64,000 nucleotides of DNA, taken from the NCBI GenBank assembly GCA_040754535.1, contig JBFMCC010000023.1, forward strand, positions 28,570 through 92,569, read 5' to 3'. Both the position numbers and the translations under genes were made by a program. Positions 26,203 to 47,790 of this stretch are shown one piece after another. Position 1 is the stretch's first letter, and the number at the start of each line of letters is the position of its first letter. The notes under the pieces were generated by a model that was given only the letters and a program-made list of their open reading frames with translations, had not been told where the DNA came from and ran no database searches. This stretch comes from Chloroflexota bacterium (GTDB lineage Bacteria; Chloroflexota; Anaerolineae; Anaerolineales; Villigracilaceae).

Positions 26203-26567
26203 AAGCCAGCCTCACTCTTTGTAGTCCGCTAGTCTGTTGGTCTAAGTGGTCACAGACGACTAAGGGACTTTGCCTTGATAACGGTGGCAATTCCGGCTCG
26301 GGATACTCTCGGCCTGACCATCGGACTAAGCGACTGTCCGACTACCAGACCAATTTCGCCCTGCAACTCGGAGGTCCATTCGGCGTTGTCGTCTCGGGCA
26401 GGACTTTCACCAGACCGCCTGCTCTCTGAATGGCAGGAGCTTCACCTGCCACTTGCCGTCGTACGACGCGTACTCGTCCTCGTCAGCGTTTTTGTTGGGC
26501 GGAATTATACGCCGAACTGTGGCAGTGTCAATCCTTTTGCCGCGCTCTTTTGGAAGAACCTTGTTTC

Positions 26568-26596
26568 CTTGACCGCCCCCACCCCTCACGGTACAA
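26568..26596 (+). promoter_or_regulatory. sigma70-type promoter of tRNA operon
   Basis: TTGACC, 17-nt spacer, TACAAT, ending 9 nt before the tRNA-Gly 5' end. Confidence 0.65.
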
Positions 26597-26605
26597 TGCA
26601 GGCGA

Positions 26606-26677
26606 TGCGGGAGTCGCCAAGCGGTAAGGCGTCAGCCTTCCAAGCTGATATGCGCGGGTTCGAATCCCGTCTCCCGC
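26606..26677 (+). tRNA. tRNA-Gly (anticodon UCC)
   Basis: Acceptor GCGGGAG/CTCCCGC. Anticodon loop CTTCCAA, T-loop TTCGAAT, discriminator T. CCA is not encoded. Confidence 0.85.
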
Positions 26678-26684
26678 TCTCTCT

Positions 26685-26745
26685 CTCGGTTGAAGGTTTC
26701 AGGTTGAAAGTTGAAGGAAGATTTCGACTTTCAACCTGAAACCGC
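26685..26745 (+). other. perfect 17-bp inverted repeat (hairpin) between the two tRNAs
   Basis: ggtttcaggttgaaagt ... actttcaacctgaaacc with a 15-nt loop. Confidence 0.7.
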
Positions 26746-26748
26746 CCC

Positions 26749-26821
26749 GGGCTCGTGGCGCAGTGGTTAGCGCAGGCGACTCATAATCGCTTGGTCGCAG
26801 GTTCGAATCCTGCCGGGCCCA
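26749..26821 (+). tRNA. tRNA-Met elongator type (anticodon CAU; tRNA-Ile2 not excluded)
   Basis: Acceptor GGGCTCG/CGGGCCC. Anticodon loop CTCATAA, T-loop TTCGAAT, discriminator A. No initiator features. Confidence 0.85.
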
Positions 26822-26955
26822 CTTTTGATTTAAGCAAATGCTCGCCGGCCCCCATTCAGGGGATGATATCCGAATCCCGCCGGGCCCACTTTTGATTTAA
26901 GCAAGTGCCCGCCGGCCCCCATTCAGGGGATGATATCCGAATCCTGCCCGACCCA
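26822..26955 (+). repeat. two tandem ~67-bp units each ending in a degenerate copy of the tRNA-Met 3' end (att-like scars)
   Basis: cacttttgatttaagcaa(a/g)tgc(t/c)cgccggcccccattcaggggatgatatccgaatcc(c/t)gcc(g/c)g(g/a)ccca repeats the tRNA T-arm/acceptor (ggttcgaatcctgccgggccca). Confidence 0.7.
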
Positions 26956-27047
26956 ATTGGTTTGACATGCTATTGCCGGTTTGTACAGAGCGCGGGAGCA
27001 AAAACGCGGTTCTAAGTCTAAGTTGAAATTGAATTATAAATTGATAC

Positions 27048-27076
27048 TTGACAAATGATTCACGACCTTATAGTAT
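27048..27076 (+). promoter_or_regulatory. candidate promoter for radical-SAM gene
   Basis: TTGACA with TATAGT/TAGTAT 15-17 nt downstream. Confidence 0.4.
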
Positions 27077-27185
27077 TGAACAAGTTTCATTAACTCGTGG
27101 GCAAAATTTTAGTGGTACGGGGATCATTGACTAAACCGGCGAAATCCGGTTCATGAATCTTTTCTGAATTCCATAGGAGTCTCCG

Positions 27186-28430
27186 GTGAAACCCTCATCC
27201 ATCCTTGCCGGAAAAGTATATGTCGAGGCCGTGCATGCTGCGTGTAATCGCAGGAAGCTTGACGCCCAAAAAATTGCGTCGTTTTTTGAAAACAACGGAT
27301 ACAGGATCGTAAGGGACCCGGGGGACGCAGATGTGATGTTGTTGATTACTTGCGCGGTTTCGCTCGAAAGAGAAGCCAGCTCGATAAGCCGGATCCATCA
27401 TCTCAAAAAATACGGCGGGGAGTTAATCGTAAGCGGATGCCTTCCGGCGATAAACAAGCAAAAGTTGTCGTCCGTACACAGCGGAGTCAGTATTCCAACG
27501 TCGGAACTCAGTAAACTGGACGACTATTTCCCGAATATGCAGGTCAAGTTCACAGAACTCGGAGACGCGAACCGCTACTGGCCCTCTTATGAAAAGATGT
27601 TCGGTTATCAGTTCTTCCAGGTCGCCGTTGAGAAAATAAAATCCTTCAGGAGACTGCCGCTTAATTACATTATCAAAAAAGAAATCCCGAGATTAATCAA
27701 CCGAACGATTATAAGGAGGAGTGCGGCGGAGATCGAGCCATTTTCCATCAGAATCTCCTGGGGGTGCAACCACCAATGCGCATATTGCGGTATCCGGTCT
27801 GCCGTGGGTAAATTCCACAGCAAACCGCTGGAAACCTGCCGCGCCGAATTCGCCGAGGGCCTGAACAAAGGTTACAGAGAATTCGAACTGATAGCGGACG
27901 ATGTCGGGGCCTACGGCGTTGATATTGGCAAGACATTTCCAGATCTCTTGAATTCCCTGCTCGATGTAAAGGGTAATTACACTATCCAAATCTGGAATCT
28001 CTCCCCTATATGGCTGGTCAAATACCAGGAGGCTTTTGCTCCAATCCTGAAAACGAAGAAAATCAGCGGAATCCATTATCCCGTCCAATCCGGCAGTGGA
28101 AAAATGCTTAAAGCCATGAATCGATACAGCAACGTGGAAAAGATCAGGGATTCGGTGAGGTTTTTAAGAAAGCATTTCCCTTCAATCTCAGTGACCACCG
28201 ACCTGATTGTCGGATACCCTGGAGAGACCGACGAAGACGTTACGGCAACCATCGAGTTTCTCGGCAGTGCTGATTTCGATATCGTCCATATCTTCACATA
28301 CAAGGATGTTCCGAATACGATCGCCTACGCGGCGCAGGATAAGATACCCCCCAATATTATCGAACAACGGGTCAGCAGGCTCCAGCATGGACTGGACGCA
28401 ATGAGCACAGACTATTTAGTTATTGCCTGA
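27186..28430 (+). CDS. radical SAM methylthiotransferase-like enzyme (MiaB/RimO family, no TRAM domain)
   Basis: N-terminal MTTase Cys triad (AACNRR, ITCAV, SGCLP). Radical-SAM motif ISWGCNHQCAYC. ~50% GC. The C-terminus is too short for a TRAM domain. GTG start with an AGGAGT RBS. Confidence 0.75.
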   Translation: MKPSSILAGKVYVEAVHAACNRRKLDAQKIASFFENNGYRIVRDPGDADVMLLITCAVSLEREASSISRIHHLKKYGGELIVSGCLPAINKQKLSSVHSGVSIPTSELSKLDDYFPNMQVKFTELGDANRYWPSYEKMFGYQFFQVAVEKIKSFRRLPLNYIIKKEIPRLINRTIIRRSAAEIEPFSIRISWGCNHQCAYCGIRSAVGKFHSKPLETCRAEFAEGLNKGYREFELIADDVGAYGVDIGKTFPDLLNSLLDVKGNYTIQIWNLSPIWLVKYQEAFAPILKTKKISGIHYPVQSGSGKMLKAMNRYSNVEKIRDSVRFLRKHFPSISVTTDLIVGYPGETDEDVTATIEFLGSADFDIVHIFTYKDVPNTIAYAAQDKIPPNIIEQRVSRLQHGLDAMSTDYLVIA

Positions 28431-28594
28431 TTGGACGCAAAAACATGGTCAAGCCTGCATTCAAATCAATTTCTCGGCAACAATGTAAAGTACAGAAAAG
28501 GGCGCCGCGGAGACATGTGACTGCGTGCGACGCCCACTGCCGTGGCGGGCTGGTACCACATAGTCACCCATAGTGGAAAGACGTAAAAAGCGAC

Positions 28595-29518
28595 ATGATG
28601 AAAAATATCATTCCCCCGAGCGACCAGCCATCGGCATATAACATGTATGAGAACGTGGAATACTCGGAATATTGGAATGTCGCATATAGGAGGAAGCTCA
28701 ACGAACTGGAACATGCCATTGTTCAAGAATTATTGCCTGCGGCAGGCAACCGCATTCTCGATCTGGGTTGCGGCTATGGCAGGATGGCCGATTGCTATCT
28801 TGGTCGCTTCCGGGATGTCGTGATGTTCGACGGCTCCTTATCTCTGCTACGAACCGCGCAAAAAGTGACCGACGGGAAAGCGTATTATGTAGTGGGAGAT
28901 ATTAACTACCTCCCCTTTCATCCCGCCACATTTGACAACATACTGATGGTCCTAGTGCTTCACCATCTGACCGAACCGGCACGATGTTTGGATAATATTG
29001 GCAAAGTGATCTGTAAGGGCGGACGCTTTGTGATGACTTACAGGAACAAAAGAAACGCTCTATGGATGGCAAAATACCTTGTGGGGGCATTGCATGGGAA
29101 CCCGTTCACCAAAGAACCGCTCCTCCTGGAGGCCAACATATTCAATCATCATCCTGCTTACATAGCGGAGTTGATGACCGCCGCTGGCTTTGAAAGCCTT
29201 ACATATCGCGGGGCAGGCGTTTTCGACAAGGTCGAAAAATCACTGGGCAGGTTCGCCAAATGGGTGCCGCGCGGTGACTTTTGGACGCCCCTGTTCGGCA
29301 AATTATTCCTGGCCCCGTGGATATTCTGCCGGGGAATCTCCCAGAACAGGGAAACTCTCAGATCTTCCGAGAATGTGGAAAGCCTGCTGGCATGCCCGCG
29401 TTGCAAGTCGGAACTGGAACGTGAAGCAAGCGGGGTCAAATGCATGCGTTGCCGCACTAGGTATCCAAACCTCGATGGGATTATCGACATGAGAATCGAA
29501 CCACAGGCTACTTCATAG
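28595..29518 (+). CDS. class I SAM-dependent methyltransferase with C-terminal Trm112-like zinc ribbon
   Basis: LDLGCGYGRM is motif I. The C-terminal LACPRCKSELE...KCMRCRTRYPNLDGIIDM is a Trm112p-like zinc ribbon. Confidence 0.75.
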   Translation: MMKNIIPPSDQPSAYNMYENVEYSEYWNVAYRRKLNELEHAIVQELLPAAGNRILDLGCGYGRMADCYLGRFRDVVMFDGSLSLLRTAQKVTDGKAYYVVGDINYLPFHPATFDNILMVLVLHHLTEPARCLDNIGKVICKGGRFVMTYRNKRNALWMAKYLVGALHGNPFTKEPLLLEANIFNHHPAYIAELMTAAGFESLTYRGAGVFDKVEKSLGRFAKWVPRGDFWTPLFGKLFLAPWIFCRGISQNRETLRSSENVESLLACPRCKSELEREASGVKCMRCRTRYPNLDGIIDMRIEPQATS

Positions 29519-29715
29519 TTTCATCATCAGCCATGTGCAAAAACCAGTGGGCCACGCATAAGAGGTGTGATGGGGAATGGTATTCCGCATATCTGTAATT
29601 CAACAGGATTCCATCCCGCTCCACAAAGCTAATCACTTACATCTGACCACTATCACGGCTTCTTGAAGGATACGAAAACTGCCATTAAAATCAAATTTTT
29701 AAATTGAAATTTAAC

Positions 29716-29743
29716 TTGACTTTTTTTTTGTAATCAGTATAAT
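29716..29743 (+). promoter_or_regulatory. near-consensus sigma70 promoter (TTGACT, 16-nt spacer, TATAAT)
   Basis: In an AT-rich intergenic region, ~260 nt upstream of the 30001 start. Confidence 0.55.
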
Positions 29744-30000
29744 GTTATTTGCGCTTTTCAAATTTGTTAAGTGGCCTTGAAACAATGAATTGCCCACATT
29801 ATCGGGCTCACACGGTTCAAGATATAAGTGACGTTCATCCATACAGATCTAGACAAGTATTTTGAAAAAGGCTATTGTTTGAGAAGCGATCAGTAAACCG
29901 CCTACAGAGTTAGCCATTACCTCCGCCTTTACACAGTCCAACTCAAATAAGGCGAGTCGTCAAATAAAAAATCCATCTAATTTCACCCGCGGGAGGCACA

Positions 30001-33000
30001 ATGTTCAAGACTATTTCGTTTTTGACCCAGAAGATGGACAACACTATTCAGCGTGTCGCGTTCGGCCCCGTGATCATGGTCCTGGTCCTCCTTTTTGCAG
30101 CCGTTGGGGTACCGACTCAGGATGTTGCGGCACAGGCACCATCCAACAAACCGTTGTTGATCGCCGCCTTTGTGCCCGAAAAGGTGGTATTGATATCACC
30201 GGAAGGAAATATCGGCAACAACTACAATCCTACTTATACATGGAATGCACTGGTTGATGCAGATGAATATACTCTTGGAGTCGTTGGCCCGAACGGGGAA
30301 GATTTGATCTATCAAACGTATGACCAGGCAGATATATGCACCGCCACGATTTGCTCGGTCACCCATCCGCTGACTTTGTCCGGGGGATCGCATACCTGGT
30401 GGGTGAGGGGGAGAAACGTGGACGGGCTCGGTCCGTGGAGCGATCCGATGGTTTTCAGCATTGCGCCCGATACCACCATCACCAGCAACCCGCCGGACCC
30501 GAGTTTCAGCAACAGCGCCACATTCGCTTTCGAAAGCGATGATCCCTCCGCGACATTCGAATGCCAATTGGATGGAGGCGGCTTCAGCGCCTGCACCAGC
30601 CCAATGGATTACACAGGCCTAAGTGACAGCAGTCACACCTTTGAGGTGCGCGCTGTGGAAAGTCATGGCACTCCCGACCCCACGCCGGCCTCCTACACGT
30701 GGCTGGTTGATGTCCCCGTCTGCTACGCCCTGACGCTTAGCCATACCGGCAATGGAAGCGATCCATCAGCCGATCCCGCCAACTCACCGGGCTGTTCGGC
30801 CGGTCAATTCGTTGAAGGCGCGGTCGTGGATCTAACCGCGGCGCCGAATGCGGGCTGGCAGGTCAGTAGTTGGACCGGCACGAACGATAATAACAGCACT
30901 GCCACCAGCAACACCGTCACCATGCCCGCCGGCGCACATGCCGCGAGCGTCAATTACACGCAGATCGAATACACCCTGACGGTGAATACTGTGGGAAATG
31001 GCACGGTGACCAGAGATCCCGACCAGGCCATCTATCACTACGGCGATGTCGTGCAGTTGACCGCGACACCTGCCATCGGCTGGCTCTTCTCCGCCTGGAG
31101 CGGCAGCCTGACCAGCACGGCCAACCCGGTCAACATCACCATTGACGCGAACGAAACCGTTACCGCCACGTTCACGCAGATCGAATACACCCTGACGGTG
31201 AATACTGTGGGAAATGGCACGGTGACAAGAGATCCCGACCAGGCTACCTATCACTACGGCGATGTCGTGCAGTTGACCGCGGCACCTGCCGCCGGCTCGT
31301 CGTTCTCCGGCTGGAGCGGTGACCTGACCGGCTCCGCCAACCCGGTCAATATCACCATTGATGGCAACAAGTCCGTCACCGCCACATTCACCAATATCGG
31401 ATACACCCTGACAGTGAACATCGTCGGCGACGGTACCGTAAGCAGGAATCCTGACCAGGCCTTCTACACCTACGGCGATGTGGTCGAACTGACCGCCGCG
31501 CCGATGCCCGGCTGGACCTTCGCAGGCTGGTCCGGCGGGCTTTCCGGGAACGCAAATCCCGAATCCATCGTAATTGATGAAGATGAAACGGTTACGGCGC
31601 AGTTCCTGACCCTGCCTTTGCTCACCTCACCGCTCAATGGAACGACGCTGCTTTACAACCAGCCGACTTTTGACTGGGAGGATGTAAACGGAGCAATTAA
31701 CTACAGCATTCAGGTTTCCAGGTATAGCAATTTCAGATTGCTCTTGGTGAATGCAAGGGTTACGACCTCGACCTATACCCTCCTCAGGGCACTCCCAGTC
31801 AATACTGTGCTCTACTGGCGTGTCAAAGCCAACGGTGTCGCTTTCAACCTATGGTCCGAAGTACGCACCCTCACTTCCGCCAATCCGCCTTCGCTGCCGC
31901 TTCTGCGTTCGCCAGCCAACAATGCCCTGGTAACGGATTACACGCCGCGCCTCGATTGGGCCGACGTCAGACTCCCGGCAGGGACGACCTTCGATAAATA
32001 CGAACTTCAGATGGCAACGGACAGCGCGTTCACCTCCCCGACCAGTGTGGAGATTGGCGGCCCGGAGACGAACTCCGAGTACACACCCGGCGTCGACCTT
32101 CTTCCCAACACCAGGTATTACTGGCGCGTACGTGCATACAACACAGACGGACAATATAGCGCCTGGTCCACGAGCCGTTCCTTCCGCACGGCCGTCCTGC
32201 CGCCGACGCTGCTGGCCCCATCGGACGCTGAGATACTGCTCAACAAACGTCCGACCTTCGATTGGGATGATGTGGCGGGCGCGACCTCCTATACCATCCA
32301 GATCTCCACCGCCCAAAACTTCATGCCCGTCAAGATCAATGCCACCGTGACCACCTCGACGTTCACGCCGACGATTAACCTGATGGCTGACACCCTGTAC
32401 TACTGGAGAGTGCGGACCAACGCCGTCAACGGGCCGAGCGTGTTTTCCGAAGTCTGGTCCTTCACGACAGGCAACCCGCCCTCCACGCCTGCCCTGGTTG
32501 CTCCGGCCAATAACGCCCTGCTCACCGATTACACGCCGTTGTTGAACTGGTCCAATTCCACCCTGCCGGCCGGGACGACCTTCGATCATTACCAGTTGCA
32601 GATCGCAACGGACGCCGCCTTCGCAAGCCTGGTCGTGGATGCCAACGTGGGCGCGGGAGACATTACCGCCTCGGAGTACAGCCCGACGACCGACCTGGCC
32701 GCCAACACCAAGTTCTACTGGCGCGTGAGAGCCGTGAACAGCGACCTGGAATACAGCGCCTGGTCCGTCAGCCGTTACTTCCGTACGGTCCTCCTGCCGC
32801 CGACCCTGGTTACCCCGGCCGATCTGGACATCCTCTCCGGCCCGCTCCCGACGTTCGACTGGGAGGATGTGACCGGCGCATCCAGTTACACCATCCAGGT
32901 GTCGAGGAACCCCACCTTCACCCAGTTGGTGGTAAACAGGACCGTTGCAACCTCCACGTACACTCCCGTTTCCAACCTGCCCCTTAACATCACTCTCTAC

Positions 33001-33072
33001 TGGCGGGTCAGGACGAACGGCCCCAACGGGCCAAGCCTGTGGTCGGAAGTGAGGTCGTTCACGCTTCAATAA
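30001..33072 (+). CDS. large secreted repeat protein: InlB B-repeat (Listeria/Bacteroides repeat) domains plus ~6 FN3-like repeats
   Basis: GGGAGG RBS and an N-terminal signal/TM. Four YTLTVNTVGNGTV...WSG...ANPVNITID...VTATF units. Six ~95-aa repeats end YYWRVRA...WS..R.F.T. Confidence 0.8.
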   Translation: MFKTISFLTQKMDNTIQRVAFGPVIMVLVLLFAAVGVPTQDVAAQAPSNKPLLIAAFVPEKVVLISPEGNIGNNYNPTYTWNALVDADEYTLGVVGPNGEDLIYQTYDQADICTATICSVTHPLTLSGGSHTWWVRGRNVDGLGPWSDPMVFSIAPDTTITSNPPDPSFSNSATFAFESDDPSATFECQLDGGGFSACTSPMDYTGLSDSSHTFEVRAVESHGTPDPTPASYTWLVDVPVCYALTLSHTGNGSDPSADPANSPGCSAGQFVEGAVVDLTAAPNAGWQVSSWTGTNDNNSTATSNTVTMPAGAHAASVNYTQIEYTLTVNTVGNGTVTRDPDQAIYHYGDVVQLTATPAIGWLFSAWSGSLTSTANPVNITIDANETVTATFTQIEYTLTVNTVGNGTVTRDPDQATYHYGDVVQLTAAPAAGSSFSGWSGDLTGSANPVNITIDGNKSVTATFTNIGYTLTVNIVGDGTVSRNPDQAFYTYGDVVELTAAPMPGWTFAGWSGGLSGNANPESIVIDEDETVTAQFLTLPLLTSPLNGTTLLYNQPTFDWEDVNGAINYSIQVSRYSNFRLLLVNARVTTSTYTLLRALPVNTVLYWRVKANGVAFNLWSEVRTLTSANPPSLPLLRSPANNALVTDYTPRLDWADVRLPAGTTFDKYELQMATDSAFTSPTSVEIGGPETNSEYTPGVDLLPNTRYYWRVRAYNTDGQYSAWSTSRSFRTAVLPPTLLAPSDAEILLNKRPTFDWDDVAGATSYTIQISTAQNFMPVKINATVTTSTFTPTINLMADTLYYWRVRTNAVNGPSVFSEVWSFTTGNPPSTPALVAPANNALLTDYTPLLNWSNSTLPAGTTFDHYQLQIATDAAFASLVVDANVGAGDITASEYSPTTDLAANTKFYWRVRAVNSDLEYSAWSVSRYFRTVLLPPTLVTPADLDILSGPLPTFDWEDVTGASSYTIQVSRNPTFTQLVVNRTVATSTYTPVSNLPLNITLYWRVRTNGPNGPSLWSEVRSFTLQ
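30961..31392 (+). repeat. two near-identical tandem 216-bp intragenic repeats (72-aa InlB B-repeat unit)
   Basis: 30961-31176 vs 31177-31392 differ at only a handful of positions. Confidence 0.85.
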
Positions 33073-34997: not shown

Positions 34998-36404
34998 TTA
35001 GAACTGGAAGTAGATGAAATCGGGCGAGGAGGAATTGAGGTAAACCAGCATCGCCACGGTGGCGGCCGCGTAGTACAGCGCGTGGACGTACGAGTCCGGG
35101 GCGAGACGGCGGTCCATCCACCATTTGAGCGCCAGCGGGGCCGCGTAGAACGCGGTCATCGAAAGGACGATAAGCGCCACGGCTTGTTCTTCCAGCGTGC
35201 CAAGCAATGAGCCAGAGGAGAGTACGTTGACCATCCAATCGAGCGAGGGGGCGCGGAATAACAGCCAGCCGAACACGATGAAGACGAACATCACCAGCCA
35301 GGCCGCGAAGGTTTTCACTTTGCTGGAAGGCTTCCAATTGCCTCCCATGCCAAGCGACTGGTAGACGACGATCAGGACGCCGTACCACAGGCCCCACAGC
35401 ACGAACGTCCAGCCCGCGCCGTGCCAGATGCCGCTCACCAGCATGGTGACCAGCGGCGGCGCGGACTGGATCAACCAGTCCGGCAATCGCCCCTGCCGGC
35501 GGAGCAGGGCACGGCGCAACGGAAAGAAGATGTAATCGCGCAGCCAGGTGGATAATGTAATGTGCCAGCGATTCCAAAAGTCGGTGGGCGTGAGGGAAAG
35601 ATACGGGGACTTGAAATTCTCGGACGTATCGAAGCCGAGCAGGTACGCGACGGCGCGGGAGAGATCGGTGTAAGCAGAAAAATCGGCCAGGATTTGCAGG
35701 GTGAAGCCGAGCGCGGCGGAGACGGCCAGCAGAATGGTCGGTTCGCCCAGGGAGAAGACGCGGTCCACGATAGTCTTGATGGTATCGGCGACTACGAATT
35801 TTTTGAAGAAGCCCATCACCAGCAGCGGCCATGCGCTGTAAAAGTACTCGGCCTTCCACACACGCGGACTTTGAATCTGCGGCAGGAGTTTCTGGGCGCG
35901 GTCCATCGGGCCCGCGGTGACTTGCGGGAAGAAGGAGACGTACAGGCCGAATGCGACCAGGTCGCGCGCGGGTTCGAGCGTGCCGCGCGACACGTCGAGC
36001 AGGTAGGCAAGTTTCTTGAGCGTGTAGAACGACAGGCCCGCGGGGAGCAGAATCCGCACCAGCACGAAATCGGCCTGCAGGCCCAGGCCAGACAGAAGTC
36101 CGAAGAGCGAACCGCTGAAGAAGTTGTAATACTTGAAAAATGCCAGCACGCCCACGTTCAAGATGAGACTGAGCGCGACGAACGTCCGCGACCGGGCGCG
36201 GTTGCGGGCAATCGCGAGGGCGAGTCCGTAATCTGCGAGGGTCGAGAGTCCCAGCAAAAGCGCGTACCACGGATGCGCCCACGCGTAGAACACGTAACTG
36301 GCGGCCAGCAAAAGGACGTTCTGCCACGCCGTGCGGCGCGCGAGCCAGTAGAGCACGAAGACGATGAGAAAGAAAATCAGGAAGTCGTAAGTTGTAAAAA
36401 TCAT
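34998..36404 (-). CDS. MBOAT family O-acyltransferase (AlgI/DltB-like)
   Basis: Multi-TM. WNRWHITLSTWLRDYIFFPL is the MBOAT His motif. Confidence 0.85.
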   Translation of the reverse strand: MIFTTYDFLIFFLIVFVLYWLARRTAWQNVLLLAASYVFYAWAHPWYALLLGLSTLADYGLALAIARNRARSRTFVALSLILNVGVLAFFKYYNFFSGSLFGLLSGLGLQADFVLVRILLPAGLSFYTLKKLAYLLDVSRGTLEPARDLVAFGLYVSFFPQVTAGPMDRAQKLLPQIQSPRVWKAEYFYSAWPLLVMGFFKKFVVADTIKTIVDRVFSLGEPTILLAVSAALGFTLQILADFSAYTDLSRAVAYLLGFDTSENFKSPYLSLTPTDFWNRWHITLSTWLRDYIFFPLRRALLRRQGRLPDWLIQSAPPLVTMLVSGIWHGAGWTFVLWGLWYGVLIVVYQSLGMGGNWKPSSKVKTFAAWLVMFVFIVFGWLLFRAPSLDWMVNVLSSGSLLGTLEEQAVALIVLSMTAFYAAPLALKWWMDRRLAPDSYVHALYYAAATVAMLVYLNSSSPDFIYFQF

Positions 36405-36411
36405 TCGACGC

Positions 36412-37146
36412 CTATGATTCGGGATGTTCCTCGGCCAGGAGCATCACGCGGAAATCCTCGGCCGCGGCCAGGCCTTTTTCCTTGCCCGCCTCGGCGGCCC
36501 ATTCGCGCATTTCCTTCTCGACGTCCCAATCGCCGATCTGACTGGCGTGCTTTTTCAACGCGGCAATCTTGACCTCGAGCGTGTCGGCGATGTCCACCCA
36601 CGTATCGGGCTTTTCAGACCCGTGGACGTACAGCCGCCTGACGTTGTGCGGTTCCAGCCCCTCTTCGAGCAGGTCGGTGAAGATGAGGCGCGTGCCCGCG
36701 GACGGGAAGACCGCGTCGATGGCGGCCTGCGCCGCGGCGCGGTGATCGGGATGGTTGACGTAGCCGTTGCCGTAGAACAACTGCGTCGGATCGCCGGTCA
36801 CCACGACCTCGGGTTTGAAGCGGCGGATGAGGTGCGTCAGTTCCCTGCGGAGGGGGATGTCCGCGACGAGTTCGCCGTCCGCGTAACGAAGGAAGACGGT
36901 TTGTTTGACCCCCAGCACTTCATTGGCGGCCTTCTGCTCGCCCTCGCGGATGAGGGACAGGACCGGCTTGTAATCGGGACCATGCGCGGGGTCGTTCGAC
37001 CCGGCGTCTCCGCTGGTGATGACCACCGAGACGATCTCGCACCCGGCGCGCGCCCATTTGGCGAGCGTCCCGGCGACGGTGAATTCCTGATCGTCGGGGT
37101 GCGCGTGGATCACCATGGCGGATTTGGGGATGTATTCTTTTTCCAT
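36412..37146 (-). CDS. PIG-L/LmbE family N-acetylglucosaminyl deacetylase
   Basis: VIHAHPDDQEF...HPDH are family motifs. Confidence 0.8.
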   Translation of the reverse strand: MEKEYIPKSAMVIHAHPDDQEFTVAGTLAKWARAGCEIVSVVITSGDAGSNDPAHGPDYKPVLSLIREGEQKAANEVLGVKQTVFLRYADGELVADIPLRRELTHLIRRFKPEVVVTGDPTQLFYGNGYVNHPDHRAAAQAAIDAVFPSAGTRLIFTDLLEEGLEPHNVRRLYVHGSEKPDTWVDIADTLEVKIAALKKHASQIGDWDVEKEMREWAAEAGKEKGLAAAEDFRVMLLAEEHPES

Positions 37147-37148
37147 GT

Positions 37149-38168
37149 TTACTCCTCGAGCAGGGGCCGGAGGACTACAGCCAGAACCTGTGTAAAAATC
37201 GCTTTGCCCTCGGGCGTCATGTGATGCGGGTCGGAAAAATGCTCCGGGCGGATGTGCGGCGTGTGAGCGATGTCAAGGAACAGGATGCCACGTTCAATCA
37301 GATAGGTCTGCAAATCCCGAATGTAGGTTTCCAATCCGTTCGGCTCGGCGGCAGGATTTGGAAACAGGTTCGTCGGCGCGCGGACGAAGATGAGTCGGAT
37401 GCCTCTCTCCTCCGCGAGGCCGATGATTTCGGGCAGGAAAGAATGTGCGACTTGTTTATCGAAGTCTAGTGCGCTGGAAGAATACAGTTCCTGCTCGGCG
37501 TCGAGAATCATGCTGGACAGGACCTCGGGCGGAATGTCCGAGCGCAGAACGGAGTCGAAGGCCGCGTCAGCGCACGGCGTGTCACAGCCGAGCAGGGACG
37601 GCGGGACGTGCCGCTGAAACGCGCCCAGCGCATCGAGCAGTTCGACGCGGTAACTGTAGGGCGGCAGGAACATGTCCAGGGCGCGTTCGGGCAGGCTCAT
37701 GCGCTGGACGTAGGCAAGTTGGAGAAACAACGTATCTTCGGCCGAGGAATATTTATCCAGCATCCCAAAATAGGGACCATCGGCGCGGAAGGAGGGCGCG
37801 GTGAGGAGCCCATCGCGAAACAGGATGACAACCGTCTGCGGCGGTTCGTCGGCGGGAAGGATGTTATGCTCGAGCAGGAGATACCAGAGCGCCGAGGCCG
37901 AGCCGGGCACGTCCAGCTTGTACGTCGCGAGGCCGACCTGCGCTTGAAAGAGATCCGCGTCCACGTCCTTGGTCAGCATCGAATCGCCCAGCAGGAGAAT
38001 CTGCGGACGGCGCGACTTGATCTCTTGAAGATATTCGCGCGCAATGCGCGGCGTGAGGTGAGGCCCGGGCGCATCGGGGTAGGGTCCCTGAAAGGCAAAT
38101 CGGACCGCAAGGGAGGCGAGGAGAAGTAAGGCAAAAAACGAAACGGCAAAGCGGACGGTCAGGCGCAT
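37149..38168 (-). CDS. SGNH/DltD-like accessory protein, paralog of 33965-34978
   Basis: N-terminal TM, with LGDS, similar length and aligned C-terminal blocks (…LIFVRA…FLD…H…EG…). Confidence 0.55.
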   Translation of the reverse strand: MRLTVRFAVSFFALLLLASLAVRFAFQGPYPDAPGPHLTPRIAREYLQEIKSRRPQILLLGDSMLTKDVDADLFQAQVGLATYKLDVPGSASALWYLLLEHNILPADEPPQTVVILFRDGLLTAPSFRADGPYFGMLDKYSSAEDTLFLQLAYVQRMSLPERALDMFLPPYSYRVELLDALGAFQRHVPPSLLGCDTPCADAAFDSVLRSDIPPEVLSSMILDAEQELYSSSALDFDKQVAHSFLPEIIGLAEERGIRLIFVRAPTNLFPNPAAEPNGLETYIRDLQTYLIERGILFLDIAHTPHIRPEHFSDPHHMTPEGKAIFTQVLAVVLRPLLEE

Positions 38169-45594: not shown

Positions 45595-47385
45595 TTATTC
45601 TAAGGCTCTTACTTGCCAAACCTCCTTGGCAAGAGCTAATAAAATTTCGTGACGCCTCTTTATTGCTTCTTTACCCCATTCAGAAAAGCTTTGAAGGTAC
45701 TCATTTACTCGATTTATTGAGGTGTTGTCTCCGACGCTTTCGAGGTTGGCTATAGATTTCGTCAAGTAAATGTTTGATTTTGCATACTCCTTCACCTTAT
45801 CAGTGAAAAAATCCCTTTGAATAGATTCGTTAATCGGTTTTTCCAATAATGTTAAATTTCCTAACCTAGTCATATAATCATTGTACTCAACCTTATTCTC
45901 ACCTGAAAAATCTAGCACCATCTCCGTAGTAGGATCAACAGGCAGGATATGCTCAATATGTATTGAGGGTTTTAAATACGCCGCAATTGAACGGCTACTT
46001 TCATCGCCCATTCTTCTGGAGTCAAGGTATTGGGCAATTTTAGCTAAGAGATATTTTAGTTTATATTTCTGCATTGAGGATAATCTCAGATCCATGAAAT
46101 TCGTCTCAAAAGATCGGGCTCTGTTTTCAACATCTGTTCTAATTCTGCTTGCAATAAATTCATTTAGATTCTTATTGTTTTTGATCTTTCGTATTTCCTC
46201 AGTCCAAACAGAGAACTTCTTTTCAACATCGCGAGGCGCTTCTTTCGTGATATTGTAATAAAAGAGCAAAGTTTCTAACTGTACGAGCAAATGATCAAAT
46301 TGCTCCGGCTTCAGTCCTTTTGCTGAAAGGAGTAGTATGAAGTGTTGTTTAAATCCGCTACCAACCAAATTGTTAATATTTTCAAGATTGACATTGTCCA
46401 TGTTATGATATCGATTCCTTATTATGTCCATGTAAAATTCAGCGCCCTCCTGCATCCTTCTTACTAATCCAAAAGTGTCCGACTGGTAATTCAGTTTCTT
46501 CTCGTTACTAGTAAGCCAAGAGTAAATCTCATCCTCCCTAAGAATCTTGTCGCTTTTATCATCTTTTTCAATTTCATAATTTGCCATCATAAAATACCGT
46601 AGAAATCTCAATGGCTTTTCTTTCTCTCTTTGGCCAACCAGCGAGTCTTTAAATTTGTTCCACTCAGTTTTTAGTTTAGAGAACTCGTCACGGGAAATAT
46701 TACGAAATAACAAGTTCTTTAGTAGATCAACCTGATCTAAGCTAATTCCTCTTTCGTTTATGGTTTCAAAGATCTTTAGCGCATTGCCAATTTCAGGGGT
46801 CTCGATTTGGATTAGGACGACATTGTTGAGGAAATATCCAATGAATCTGCCCTTTTGCTCCATGTCATCTTTAAAATACTGCTCCAATAAAAATCGCACG
46901 GTTTTATGCGCCTCAAAAATAGTCTTTCCCGGCAACCCTTCGATCATCTTCAGATCAATTTCATCATCATTTTCTTTCTCGCACAAGTCGTAAAAAACGT
47001 TTTTTCCTTCGTACTGAATATCCACTTTGTACGATTGGATAGTCTTACCCTCGGAATTGATTGTTTCATCCCAAAGGAGCTTATGCAAAGCGCCCGAGTG
47101 TTGTGGTCGCTTTAGATTATTAATTATTAACGACAAAGTTATGAGCCTTTGTTGTCCATCAATTACCTCAAATTTATGTGGTGCTTCTTTTACTTTACAG
47201 ACAACTATGCTGCCAAGAAAATAGTCTGCCTTGGGATTGCTTGAAAAACTGTCGTAAATGTCATTGATTAGTTGTGTTACATGTCCTTCTTGCCAAACAT
47301 ATTCCCTTTGATAATCTGGGATCTGATAAAAGTTTTCGAACAGTTTTTGAATTGCGAACTGATTGAAAGTGATAGTGTTAGACAT
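45595..47385 (-). CDS. DUF262/DUF1524 protein, GmrSD-family type IV (modification-dependent) restriction endonuclease-like
   Basis: N-terminal DYQREYVW and VIDGQQRL (DUF262 DGQQR). C-terminal HIEHILP...LGNLTLLEKPINES (His-Me finger, DUF1524). ~35% GC versus ~65% in the flanks. Confidence 0.8.
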   Translation of the reverse strand: MSNTITFNQFAIQKLFENFYQIPDYQREYVWQEGHVTQLINDIYDSFSSNPKADYFLGSIVVCKVKEAPHKFEVIDGQQRLITLSLIINNLKRPQHSGALHKLLWDETINSEGKTIQSYKVDIQYEGKNVFYDLCEKENDDEIDLKMIEGLPGKTIFEAHKTVRFLLEQYFKDDMEQKGRFIGYFLNNVVLIQIETPEIGNALKIFETINERGISLDQVDLLKNLLFRNISRDEFSKLKTEWNKFKDSLVGQREKEKPLRFLRYFMMANYEIEKDDKSDKILREDEIYSWLTSNEKKLNYQSDTFGLVRRMQEGAEFYMDIIRNRYHNMDNVNLENINNLVGSGFKQHFILLLSAKGLKPEQFDHLLVQLETLLFYYNITKEAPRDVEKKFSVWTEEIRKIKNNKNLNEFIASRIRTDVENRARSFETNFMDLRLSSMQKYKLKYLLAKIAQYLDSRRMGDESSRSIAAYLKPSIHIEHILPVDPTTEMVLDFSGENKVEYNDYMTRLGNLTLLEKPINESIQRDFFTDKVKEYAKSNIYLTKSIANLESVGDNTSINRVNEYLQSFSEWGKEAIKRRHEILLALAKEVWQVRALE

Positions 47386-47388
47386 TTC

Positions 47389-47790
47389 CTACCTCTCTAC
47401 ACTCACTACGCTACCGAGCGCCTTCAAGTTACTCTGACGAACCAGCCGCGGGCTGTAGATGCGAATCTCCCTCGGTCCTTCGGCAGGCATGATCAGGACC
47501 GGCGTCTTACCGAATTTCTTGCGGGTCCGCGCGTATAATGCCTGCTCATCCTTGTCATGATCTACCAGTTTCCGATTGTGGATGGCGACAAATTCCCCTT
47601 CGTATTTTGCCCGTTGGCTGAGAGGCAACCCCAGCCACCATTCCTGTTCCGACTCTATTTTCACGCGCGCTGATATAGTGCGCTCTCGCCGAACGGCGGA
47701 TTGGAGATAATCCTCCACAGACATGCCGCGAAGCATTGCCTCTTTTTGGATCGTCCCGGCCAACTCTTCTGAAATTTTGAATGTCGCCAT
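47389..47790 (-). CDS. small RHH-like / DUF5678-like protein with C-terminal extension copied from the neighbouring gene
   Basis: N-terminal SVEDYLQSAV is RHH-like. The middle GEFVAIHNRKLVDHDKDEQALYARTRKKFGKTPVLI is DUF5678-like. The last ~15 aa, LKALGSVVSVER, mirror the C-terminus of 47834-48922. Confidence 0.5.
   Translation of the reverse strand: MATFKISEELAGTIQKEAMLRGMSVEDYLQSAVRRERTISARVKIESEQEWWLGLPLSQRAKYEGEFVAIHNRKLVDHDKDEQALYARTRKKFGKTPVLIMPAEGPREIRIYSPRLVRQSNLKALGSVVSVER

Follow-up and report, generated by a model that had tools for sequence, protein, structure and literature searches.

We analyzed a stretch of 64,000 nt of DNA from a Chloroflexota bacterium of the Anaerolineales (assembly GCA_040754535.1, contig JBFMCC010000023.1, positions 28,570-92,569 of the forward strand), which is called the window in this report. 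Next to a tRNA gene, the window carries a cassette of two genes whose coordinates were verified (Table 1). That is, it carries a gene for a radical S-adenosylmethionine (SAM) protein of the methylthiotransferase (MTTase) superfamily, and a gene for a class I methyltransferase (MTase) with a C-terminal zinc ribbon. As judged from sequence, the radical-SAM protein is a member of a large and uncharacterized sister clade of the MTTases that lacks the TRAM domain, and it is not a truncated MiaB. At slightly less than even confidence, we think that the cassette decorates an envelope polysaccharide, a lipid-linked precursor, or another membrane-associated small molecule, and not tRNA or ribosomal protein S12.

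The open reading frame (ORF) of the radical-SAM protein starts with GTG preceded by GGAG, and this start aligns to the ATG starts in two related genomes. The 414-aa protein possesses the cysteine triad of the auxiliary cluster in its UPF0004 domain (C20/C56/C85) and the CxxxCxxC motif of the radical-SAM cluster in the form of CNHQCAYC (C194/C198/C201), just as a preliminary description of this DNA had claimed. In the TRAM-less family, the conservation of these six Fe-S cysteines is 100%. The AlphaFold2 (AF2) model of the protein (predicted local distance difference test score, pLDDT, 77) has its best fold matches in MtaB, MiaB, and RimO.

Pfam gave no match to TRAM (PF01938) or TRAM_2 (PF18693) on the 414-aa protein even at E<=1. 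The alignment of TIGR00089 to the window protein covers only profile positions 97-359 of 429, and the alignment of the family profile to the RimO of T. maritima (4JC0) ends at residue 365 of 438, where the TRAM domain of RimO starts. The preliminary description had the protein stop about 30 aa after the radical-SAM core. Actually, 55 aa follow the Pfam Radical_SAM boundary, and all 55 of them align to the MTTase core extension. Therefore there is no room for TRAM, and on this point, as on the absence of the domain itself, the description was right. When Pfam was applied to the C-terminal 59 aa and to a 42-aa ORF in the 164-nt gap downstream, no remnant of TRAM was found.

All homologues of 52-100% identity (36 database clusters) are TRAM-less proteins of 400-422 aa, so that the length of the window protein is not an artefact of truncation; the named sources among these clusters are Chloroflexota or Anaerolineales. 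About 30 more clusters of 33-40% identity are also TRAM-less, and TRAM is seen only in proteins of 30% identity or less. A search of 1.84 billion representative sequences with the close-clade profile gave scores of 296 bits or more for at least 150 clusters (at 50% identity), nearly all of them 360-450 aa long and terminating at the end of the profile. The scores of the retrieved proteins were bimodal on re-scoring. That is, about 215 proteins had at least 265 bits and a median C-terminal tail of 0-7 aa, and the canonical MTTases had less than 230 bits and tails of 55-80 aa.

The scores of the window protein were below every MTTase cut-off of NCBIfam: 237.5 bits for TIGR00089 (cut-off, 251), 214.6 for e-MtaB (314.7), 193.7 for MtaB (357), 188 for RimO (357), and 157 for MiaB (355). 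Control canonical MTTases passed their own cut-offs, and the canonical sequences used in the tree were labelled by NCBIfam. In this neighbor-joining tree of 78 sequences, which is distance-based and includes no bacterial MtaB (MtaB was compared by the score of its hidden Markov model only), the TRAM-less proteins were split from e-MtaB, MiaB, and RimO, all of which bear TRAM, in 96 of 100 bootstraps. The Chloroflexota clade was recovered in all 100. By the tree and the cut-offs, the protein is thus placed outside the canonical clades that were compared, and the clustering with MiaB or RimO that would have counted against the preliminary description was not seen. The residues R22, R23, L25, N37, D127, R189, K213, G241, and W276 are signatures of the family that are absent from canonical MTTases. 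The homologues are labelled by NCBI merely as 'radical SAM protein', and we found in the literature no characterized TRAM-less MTTase and no methylthiolating glycan or natural-product enzyme of such type. The window protein is most like RimO, MtaB, and MiaB, yet it is set apart from them by the missing TRAM, the curated cut-offs, and its placement in the tree; it is not categorically new.

The segment between the two domains is specific to the family. Its mean length is 55 aa with a net charge of +4.8, compared with 19 aa and +0.7 in the canonical MTTases. In the window protein this segment (residues about 128-186) has a net charge of +7 and is rich in hydrophobic residues, and AF2 predicts two helices in it, at residues 141-155 and 159-175, with pLDDT values of 50-73.

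Two unusual proteins were seen among the TRAM-less relatives. In P0173, a histidine phosphatase (His_Phos_1, E 4e-39) is fused N-terminally to the TRAM-less unit of UPF0004 and radical-SAM domains, and in P0210 the unit is accompanied by a region that weakly resembles nucleotide-diphospho-sugar transferases (E 9e-4, below the cut-off). These fusions may hint at phospho-sugar or small-molecule substrates.

The second protein of the cassette, the MTase, has 307 aa. Methyltransf_11 (PF08241) matches its residues 55-147 with an E-value of 9.5e-17, its motif I (D56-x-G58-C-G60) is invariant, and a Rossmann-like class I fold is supported by the AF2 model (pLDDT 92.9). The model resembles small-molecule class I MTases and Hvo_0019, and not dedicated RNA MTases; the match of the core to Hvo_0019 is found by sequence (E 4e-6) as well as by fold. 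The C-terminal end of the MTase is LLACPRCKSELEREASGVKCMRCRTRYPNLDGIIDMR, and the ribbon cysteines C267/C270/C283/C286 are invariant in 32 homologues. The motif CxxC...CxxC-YP..DGI.D.R occurs in 76 of the 82 members of the family. The score of Trm112p (PF03966) on the window MTase alone is 17.4 bits, compared with a gathering score of 22, and PF03966 is recorded for many homologues of the MTase, e.g., P0270, P0271, P0275, P0288, and P0293. The Trm112-like ribbon of the preliminary description is supported by the conserved cysteines and motif. The family of this partner, METHYLTRANSFERASE, is sharply bounded, with about 80 clusters that are mostly of 300-330 aa and share 30-85% identity; beyond it, the scores fall to those of generic MTases.

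Trm112 is known as a module that binds and activates MTases, and gene fusions of Trm112 and MTases exist in bacteria, although nothing is known about the function of these fusions (PMC6144793). Because of this activating role and these bacterial fusions, the ribbon is best read as a built-in partner module of the MTase. The idea that it is a device for targeting RNA does not hold, since the ribbon-MTase family is also found in polysaccharide operons without a radical-SAM gene (L060, L061).

The genomic contexts of the close clade were obtained by look-ups of exact proteins, which gave a small number of contexts, that is, five independent arrangements in Chloroflexota. A scan of contigs with the window protein gave one close relative (L013), and a scan of metagenomes gave only the clade of 33-39% identity. 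In arrangement A (the window, L006/L007, and L013), genes for a fumarase and a PALP enzyme, tRNA-Gly, and tRNA-Met lie upstream of the radical-SAM and ribbon-MTase genes, and the gene for a 1023-aa surface protein, followed by MBOAT and PIG-L genes, lies downstream. In arrangement B (L001, L059), the radical-SAM gene is part of a co-directional polysaccharide operon in the order of GFO/IDH oxidoreductase, epimerase, GT2, UDP-sugar dehydrogenase, GT4, FemAB-like protein, 262-aa MTase, ribbon-MTase, radical-SAM protein, ribbon-MTase, ATP-grasp-like protein, 408-aa protein, and beta-helix proteins. The polysaccharide operon of L062 contains the same module in another arrangement, and its radical-SAM gene is followed by the gene for a 267-aa MTase. 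Arrangements C and D are described below.

A class I MTase gene lies directly downstream of the radical-SAM gene in four of the five arrangements (A, B, L062, and C), so that the linkage to an MTase seen in the window recurs elsewhere. In two of the five (L001/L059; L062), the radical-SAM gene is within a polysaccharide operon. Another 10 or so radical-SAM clusters seem to lie on one contig with a member of the ribbon-MTase family, as judged solely from longest contigs of identical length. The locus L060 is syntenic with L059 and keeps a ribbon-MTase gene, and its radical-SAM gene is absent; the two loci look like the same gene cluster with and without a cassette of radical-SAM and ribbon-MTase genes. 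In L061, the ribbon-MTase gene is accompanied by Wzy, Wzx, three GT4 genes, a sulfotransferase-like gene, and a deacetylase gene, and no radical-SAM gene is present. The preliminary description had suggested a non-canonical substrate that could be RNA, protein, or a small molecule. The genomic context narrows this wide choice towards envelope glycan or lipid-linked substrates.

In the same loci we observed a polysaccharide-decoration module that recurs in Chloroflexota (L059 5256-12652, L060 3843-11483, L061 7199-11306, and L062 2640-7938). Its parts are two MTases (the 262-aa enzyme and the ribbon-MTase), a FemAB-like protein (Acetyltransf_6), and an ATP-grasp-like protein with a length of about 405-420 aa. 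Three of these four loci, L061 being the exception, also encode a conserved protein (about 407-416 aa) that has no Pfam match.

As for the distant TRAM-less relatives, one member lies in an archaeal sugar-modification cluster, and 24 of the 97 neighboring genes encode other radical-SAM proteins, 17 of which are B12-binding. The loci L012 (4404-12117) and L010 (5105-10519) belong to distant relatives of 35-38% identity, and they look like clusters for the tailoring of ether lipids or membrane lipids. Some distant relatives adjoin a second radical-SAM gene, a gene for a 1409-aa BcrAD_BadFG/DUF2229 (PlsA/Ger-like) protein, and CdsA, and others adjoin LPG_synthase_TM, PEMT, and SPASM radical-SAM genes. 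Membrane-spanning lipid synthase (MSS) was considered as an identity for the family and was set aside; the paper on MSS describes no MTTase-like domain, and the link was not established.

The features of the cassette and its surroundings are listed in Table 1.

Table 1. Features at the cassette site (positions in the window; AF2, AlphaFold2; GC, guanine-cytosine content; dS, synonymous divergence).
Feature	Position	Strand	Basis or remark
tRNA-Gly (TCC)	26607-26679		Just upstream of tRNA-Met; ARAGORN, Rfam
tRNA-Met (CAT)	26749..26822	+	Anchor of cassette site; ARAGORN, Rfam
att-like tandem direct repeats	26804..26958	+	Repeat search
Low-GC region, putatively an exchangeable cassette, from tRNA-Met 3' end to next gene start	26823..30000	.	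GC, dS
Putative sigma-70-like promoter of two-gene unit, TTGACA-17-TAGTAT	27048..27076	+	Consensus scan, 10/12 matches
TRAM-less MTTase-superfamily radical-SAM protein, 414 aa	27186..28430	+
UPF0004 (MTTase N-terminal) domain, residues 19-99	27240..27482	+	Pfam PF00919, E 6.5e-13
Family-specific inter-domain segment, residues ~128-186	27567..27743	+	Alignment, AF2
Radical-SAM core, residues 193-359	27762..28262	+	Pfam PF04055, E 2.3e-17
Class I SAM-dependent MTase with C-terminal zinc ribbon, 307 aa	28595..29518	+
Trm112p-like zinc ribbon, residues 264-300	29384..29494	+	Conservation of Cys and YP..DGIIDMR motif

The tRNA genes that the preliminary description had noted beside the cassette lie directly upstream of it, and the same pair of tRNA-Gly and tRNA-Met precedes it in L006 and L013. 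Over the 3.2 kb between tRNA-Met and the next gene, the guanine-cytosine (GC) content is 0.46-0.49, compared with about 0.60 in the surroundings. At the 3' end of tRNA-Met, two copies of a 67-nt repeat (26804-26870 and 26871-26937), which are 96% identical, are followed by a partial third copy (26938-26958), and every copy opens with the final 19 nt of tRNA-Met. As remnants of the repeat, L006 has one extra copy and L013 has a partial copy. The interval from tRNA-Met to the next conserved gene contains two ORFs only and no integrase or mobility genes, and no distal copy of the att-like repeat was found downstream of the MTase gene. In each of the three related genomes that we compared, the site is likewise occupied.

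When the window is compared with L006 or L013, the flanking proteins are 91-96% identical, and the values are 71-81% for the radical-SAM protein and 73-75% for the MTase. By the Nei-Gojobori method, the synonymous divergence (dS) of the flanks against L006 is 0.28-0.43, the very next gene included, and that of the radical-SAM and MTase genes is 1.56 and 2.07, with ratios of nonsynonymous to synonymous divergence (dN/dS) of 0.11 and 0.08, respectively. That is, the dS of the cassette is 4-5 times that of the flanks. Against L013, the dS values are 0.68 for the radical-SAM gene and 1.58 for the MTase gene, and this difference between the two genes suggests a mosaic history. The dN/dS values of the cassette genes, 0.08-0.17, reflect purifying selection. 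From the high dS, the purifying selection, and the occupied site, we conclude that the cassette carries anciently diverged functional alleles that are exchanged at a fixed site. These results point to an exchangeable accessory cassette, although it has no integrase. The term 'mobile island' used in the preliminary description therefore stands as far as the low GC content, the repeats of the tRNA 3' end, and the exchange are concerned, and falls with respect to the integrase, the distal repeat, and the occupied site in relatives. The proximity to tRNA genes, which had been taken as a clue to the substrate, marks an integration or exchange site and is not a sign of a tRNA substrate.

The sigma-70-like sequence probably acts as the promoter of the two-gene unit. 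Its -35 hexamer and most of its -10 hexamer are kept in L006 and L013 despite the diverged DNA around them. Together with the low dN/dS, this conserved promoter indicates that the cassette genes are functional. The gene after the cassette (30001) has its own near-consensus promoter, and for this reason the radical-SAM and MTase genes look like a separate transcription unit. A scan of 26400-30100 with Rfam, judged by E-values, gave the two tRNAs only and no riboswitch or leader RNA. The gap between the two genes is shorter in L013 and L006 or is unrelated to that of the window. A Cys-rich ORF of 42 aa in this gap (28446-28574) was considered as a small precursor peptide and was rejected, being not conserved in L013 or L006 and having no Pfam match. 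The spacer between the two tRNA genes (26695-26743) contains a near-perfect inverted repeat of 21 nt, 95% complementary with a loop of 7 nt, which may be a processing or terminator hairpin.

A tblastn search of sequenced plasmids and phages gave only canonical MTTases of less than 28% identity. In PADLOC-DB, the radical-SAM protein reached 13.9 bits only, and the MTase matched only the generic MTase region of mad2.

Several neighboring genes in the window were also observed. The gene at 30001-33072 (+) encodes the 1023-aa surface protein, which possesses a signal peptide, InlB-type B-repeats (Flg_new_2), and fn3/Rha78A-like Ig domains, and contains internal repeats of 216 nt and about 590 nt. 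Its dS is flank-like at 0.43 and its dN/dS of 0.21 is the highest in the region, which suggests diversifying pressure on this protein. The genes for an MBOAT protein, a PIG-L deacetylase, and a DUF1574-like protein stand in a row at 34998-38168 (-), an arrangement reminiscent of the O-acylation and deacetylation systems of cell-surface polymers. At 45595-47790 (-), a 596-aa protein of the type IV restriction endonuclease family (GmrSD_N and GmrSD_C domains) and, next to it, a 133-aa DUF5678 protein are encoded in the stretch of lowest GC content in the window (0.37), which looks like a separate small defence islet.

These findings can be considered with respect to function as follows. The radical-SAM protein keeps the two cluster sites and the fold of the MTTases, and MTTase-like chemistry is therefore the most economical assumption. 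The loss of TRAM, the basic and hydrophobic-rich insert, and the residence in glycan or lipid clusters together point to a membrane-proximal substrate that is not RNA, for which our best guess is a lipid-linked unit of an envelope glycan or a substituent of such a unit. We speculate, with a confidence well below even, that the TRAM-less clade is a third functional class of MTTases, which would attach a thio or methylthio group to a substrate that is not part of the translation apparatus, with the insert in place of TRAM and with the MTase as a partner in a strain-variable cassette for decorating the surface. Just as tentatively, such a class might act on a membrane lipid, or on a lipid-linked envelope glycan at a sugar or an aminoacyl substituent. 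While the domain content, the conserved cysteines, the separation of the clade, the gene linkage, the genomic contexts, and the evolutionary pattern at the locus are shown by the data, the C-S chemistry, the substrate class, and the role of the insert are inferred.

In the mechanism that we envisage, the [4Fe-4S] cluster bound by the UPF0004 cysteine triad would carry the sulfur for transfer, and one SAM would methylate a sulfide on this auxiliary cluster, as in RimO and MiaB. A second SAM would be reductively cleaved to give the 5'-deoxyadenosyl radical, which would abstract hydrogen from an unactivated C-H of the substrate, and the substrate radical would then capture the thio or methylthio group. 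The inserted basic helices might take over the docking of the substrate or the membrane from TRAM. The downstream class I MTase, with its own Trm112-like ribbon as an intramolecular stabilizing or activating module, may methylate the same substrate independently.

Several points weigh against this proposal, in addition to the limits of the tree mentioned above. The basic insert, which AF2 models with low confidence, could equally bind nucleic acid. In arrangement C (L004/L005, L057), the order is UvrA-like protein, radical-SAM protein, 264-aa MTase, and HicAB, and arrangement D (L058) is a low-GC Bacteroidota-like locus without an MTase; neither is related to glycans. The 264-aa MTase of arrangement C and the 267-aa MTase of L062 share 56-59% identity and have no relationship to the ribbon family. 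Since these two belong to another, ribbon-less family, the pairing with a ribbon-MTase is not universal. No glycosyltransferase operon stands beside the cassette in the window, where only the surface protein, the MBOAT protein, the PIG-L deacetylase, and a PAP2 phosphatase are encoded nearby. We know of no sulfur-containing glycan or lipid from these organisms. The role of a partner MTase is not explained by the analogy with MTTases, because canonical MTTases need no separate MTase. Furthermore, radical-SAM enzymes with two clusters are capable of chemistry besides the insertion of sulfur.

We also considered that the pair modifies membrane lipids, with radical chemistry acting on acyl or isoprenoid chains or on head groups, the MTase methylating the lipid, and the association with glycans being secondary. 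The basic, hydrophobic-rich inter-domain segment suggests in-plane membrane binding, the window has MBOAT and PAP2 genes close to the cassette, and the distant-clade loci contain PEMT, LPG_synthase_TM, the PlsA/Ger-like protein, CdsA, and many B12 radical-SAM genes of the kind typical of lipid-tailoring clusters. However, these lipid contexts come from relatives of 33-39% identity, none of which has a ribbon-MTase, the informative contexts of the close clade are glycan operons, and the cassette of the window has no directly linked gene for lipid synthesis. We therefore regard a lipid-modifying role as unlikely.

Slightly less likely still in our estimate is a role in tailoring a peptide made on the ribosome and modified after translation (RiPP) or a small-molecule natural product, or in defence-related modification of nucleic acid on a mobile islet. 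A radical-SAM gene and an MTase gene are a common tailoring pair for natural products, and the fold of the MTase resembles TleD, MitM, and RebM; however, no conserved ORF for a precursor peptide was found (the 42-aa ORF of the gap is not conserved), and genes for nonribosomal peptide synthetases, polyketide synthases, YcaO, proteases, or transporters are not adjacent. Also in favor of such roles, the cassette is low in GC, adjacent to tRNA, and exchanged, the neighbors in arrangement C include HicAB and other toxin-antitoxin-like genes, and the MTase core weakly resembles mad2 of PADLOC. Against this, the radical-SAM protein has no significant PADLOC match, and the sequenced plasmids and phages carry no members of the family.

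We place slightly lower again the explanation that the pair modifies the translation apparatus, in which tRNA, rRNA, or a ribosomal protein would be methylthiolated and the basic insert or the zinc ribbon would replace the binding function of TRAM. The closest characterized relatives all target tRNA A37 or S12 (PMC10702137), and chimera work showed that TRAM does not set the substrate specificity (PMC2952846). The insert is strongly basic, the partners of eukaryotic and archaeal Trm112 are mostly translation-related MTases, and the cassette adjoins tRNA genes. The last of these is explained by the att-like repeats, however, and the clade is separate from all TRAM-bearing MTTases. The patchy, accessory distribution, the low GC content of the exchangeable cassette, and a dS of 4-5 times the flanks speak against a translation-related function, as do the repeated residence of the gene within polysaccharide, sugar, or lipid operons, the presence of the ribbon-MTase family in extracellular polysaccharide clusters without a radical-SAM gene, and the small-molecule MTases as nearest structures of the MTase.

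Finally, a decaying pseudogene of MiaB or RimO from which a recent deletion or frameshift had removed TRAM, which the sequence of this low-GC, island-like locus taken by itself might suggest, is refuted by the conservation throughout the family and has a practically negligible probability: more than 200 homologues share the TRAM-less length, the dN/dS is 0.08-0.17, the catalytic cysteines, the promoter, and the start codon are all conserved, and no TRAM remnant lies downstream.

If the decoration of an envelope-associated substrate by the TRAM-less clade is true, radical C-H thiolation or methylthiolation would be extended to a new class of substrate. The family also offers to radical-SAM enzymologists a well-defined subject with signature residues, a partner MTase, and natural pairs of gene clusters with and without the cassette, and the polysaccharide operons are a first functional context for the bacterial fusions of the Trm112 ribbon and MTases. 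In practical terms the finding carries limited weight, since these Anaerolineales are uncultured and have no known product of this kind.

The cassette can be compared with known systems as follows. The S12 Asp88 methylthiotransferase RimO (4JC0) is the best sequence match of the window protein among solved structures, with 178.9 bits. The two share the UPF0004 domain, the radical-SAM core, and the six cluster cysteines, and RimO is the one MTTase whose substrate is not RNA. In contrast to the window protein, which is about 27% identical to it and belongs to a separate clade, RimO carries TRAM (TRAM_2) at its C terminus and has a short linker between the domains. The tRNA t6A37 methylthiotransferase e-MtaB (TIGR01578) has the highest score among the NCBIfam equivalogs (214.6 bits), and MtaB (TIGR01579) and MiaB (7MJZ) are the top fold matches, with the two-cluster architecture in common. 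These enzymes all carry TRAM and act on tRNA, whereas the window protein has an extra basic insert of about 35-40 aa. As of 2023, tRNA A37 and Asp88 of ribosomal protein S12 were the only known substrates of MTTases (PMC10702137).

As for the MTase, its core is akin to that of Hvo_0019 in the crystallized Trm112-Hvo_0019 complex of H. volcanii (6F5Z), and its ribbon has the CPxC...CxxC...YP..DGI motif of the Trm112/UPF0434 type. Unlike in the Trm112 holoenzymes, the ribbon is fused in cis at the C terminus, and the family is found in polysaccharide operons and not in translation-related contexts. LipA and BioB, which are weak fold matches of the radical-SAM protein, also use an auxiliary Fe-S cluster as the source of sulfur for converting C-H to C-S on a substrate that is not RNA. 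They differ in the domain of the auxiliary cluster and in fold, they perform no methyl transfer, and they are distant relatives. At the level of the locus, the cassette resembles serotype-converting glycan-modification cassettes at tRNA genes, such as the gtr/oac loci of Shigella, in being small and accessory, in lying next to a tRNA gene with att-like repeats, and in its atypical composition and allelic exchange between strains. Unlike them, the cassette of the window has no phage or integrase remnants, its enzymes are unrelated to theirs, and its putative target, a surface glycan, is one that we infer.

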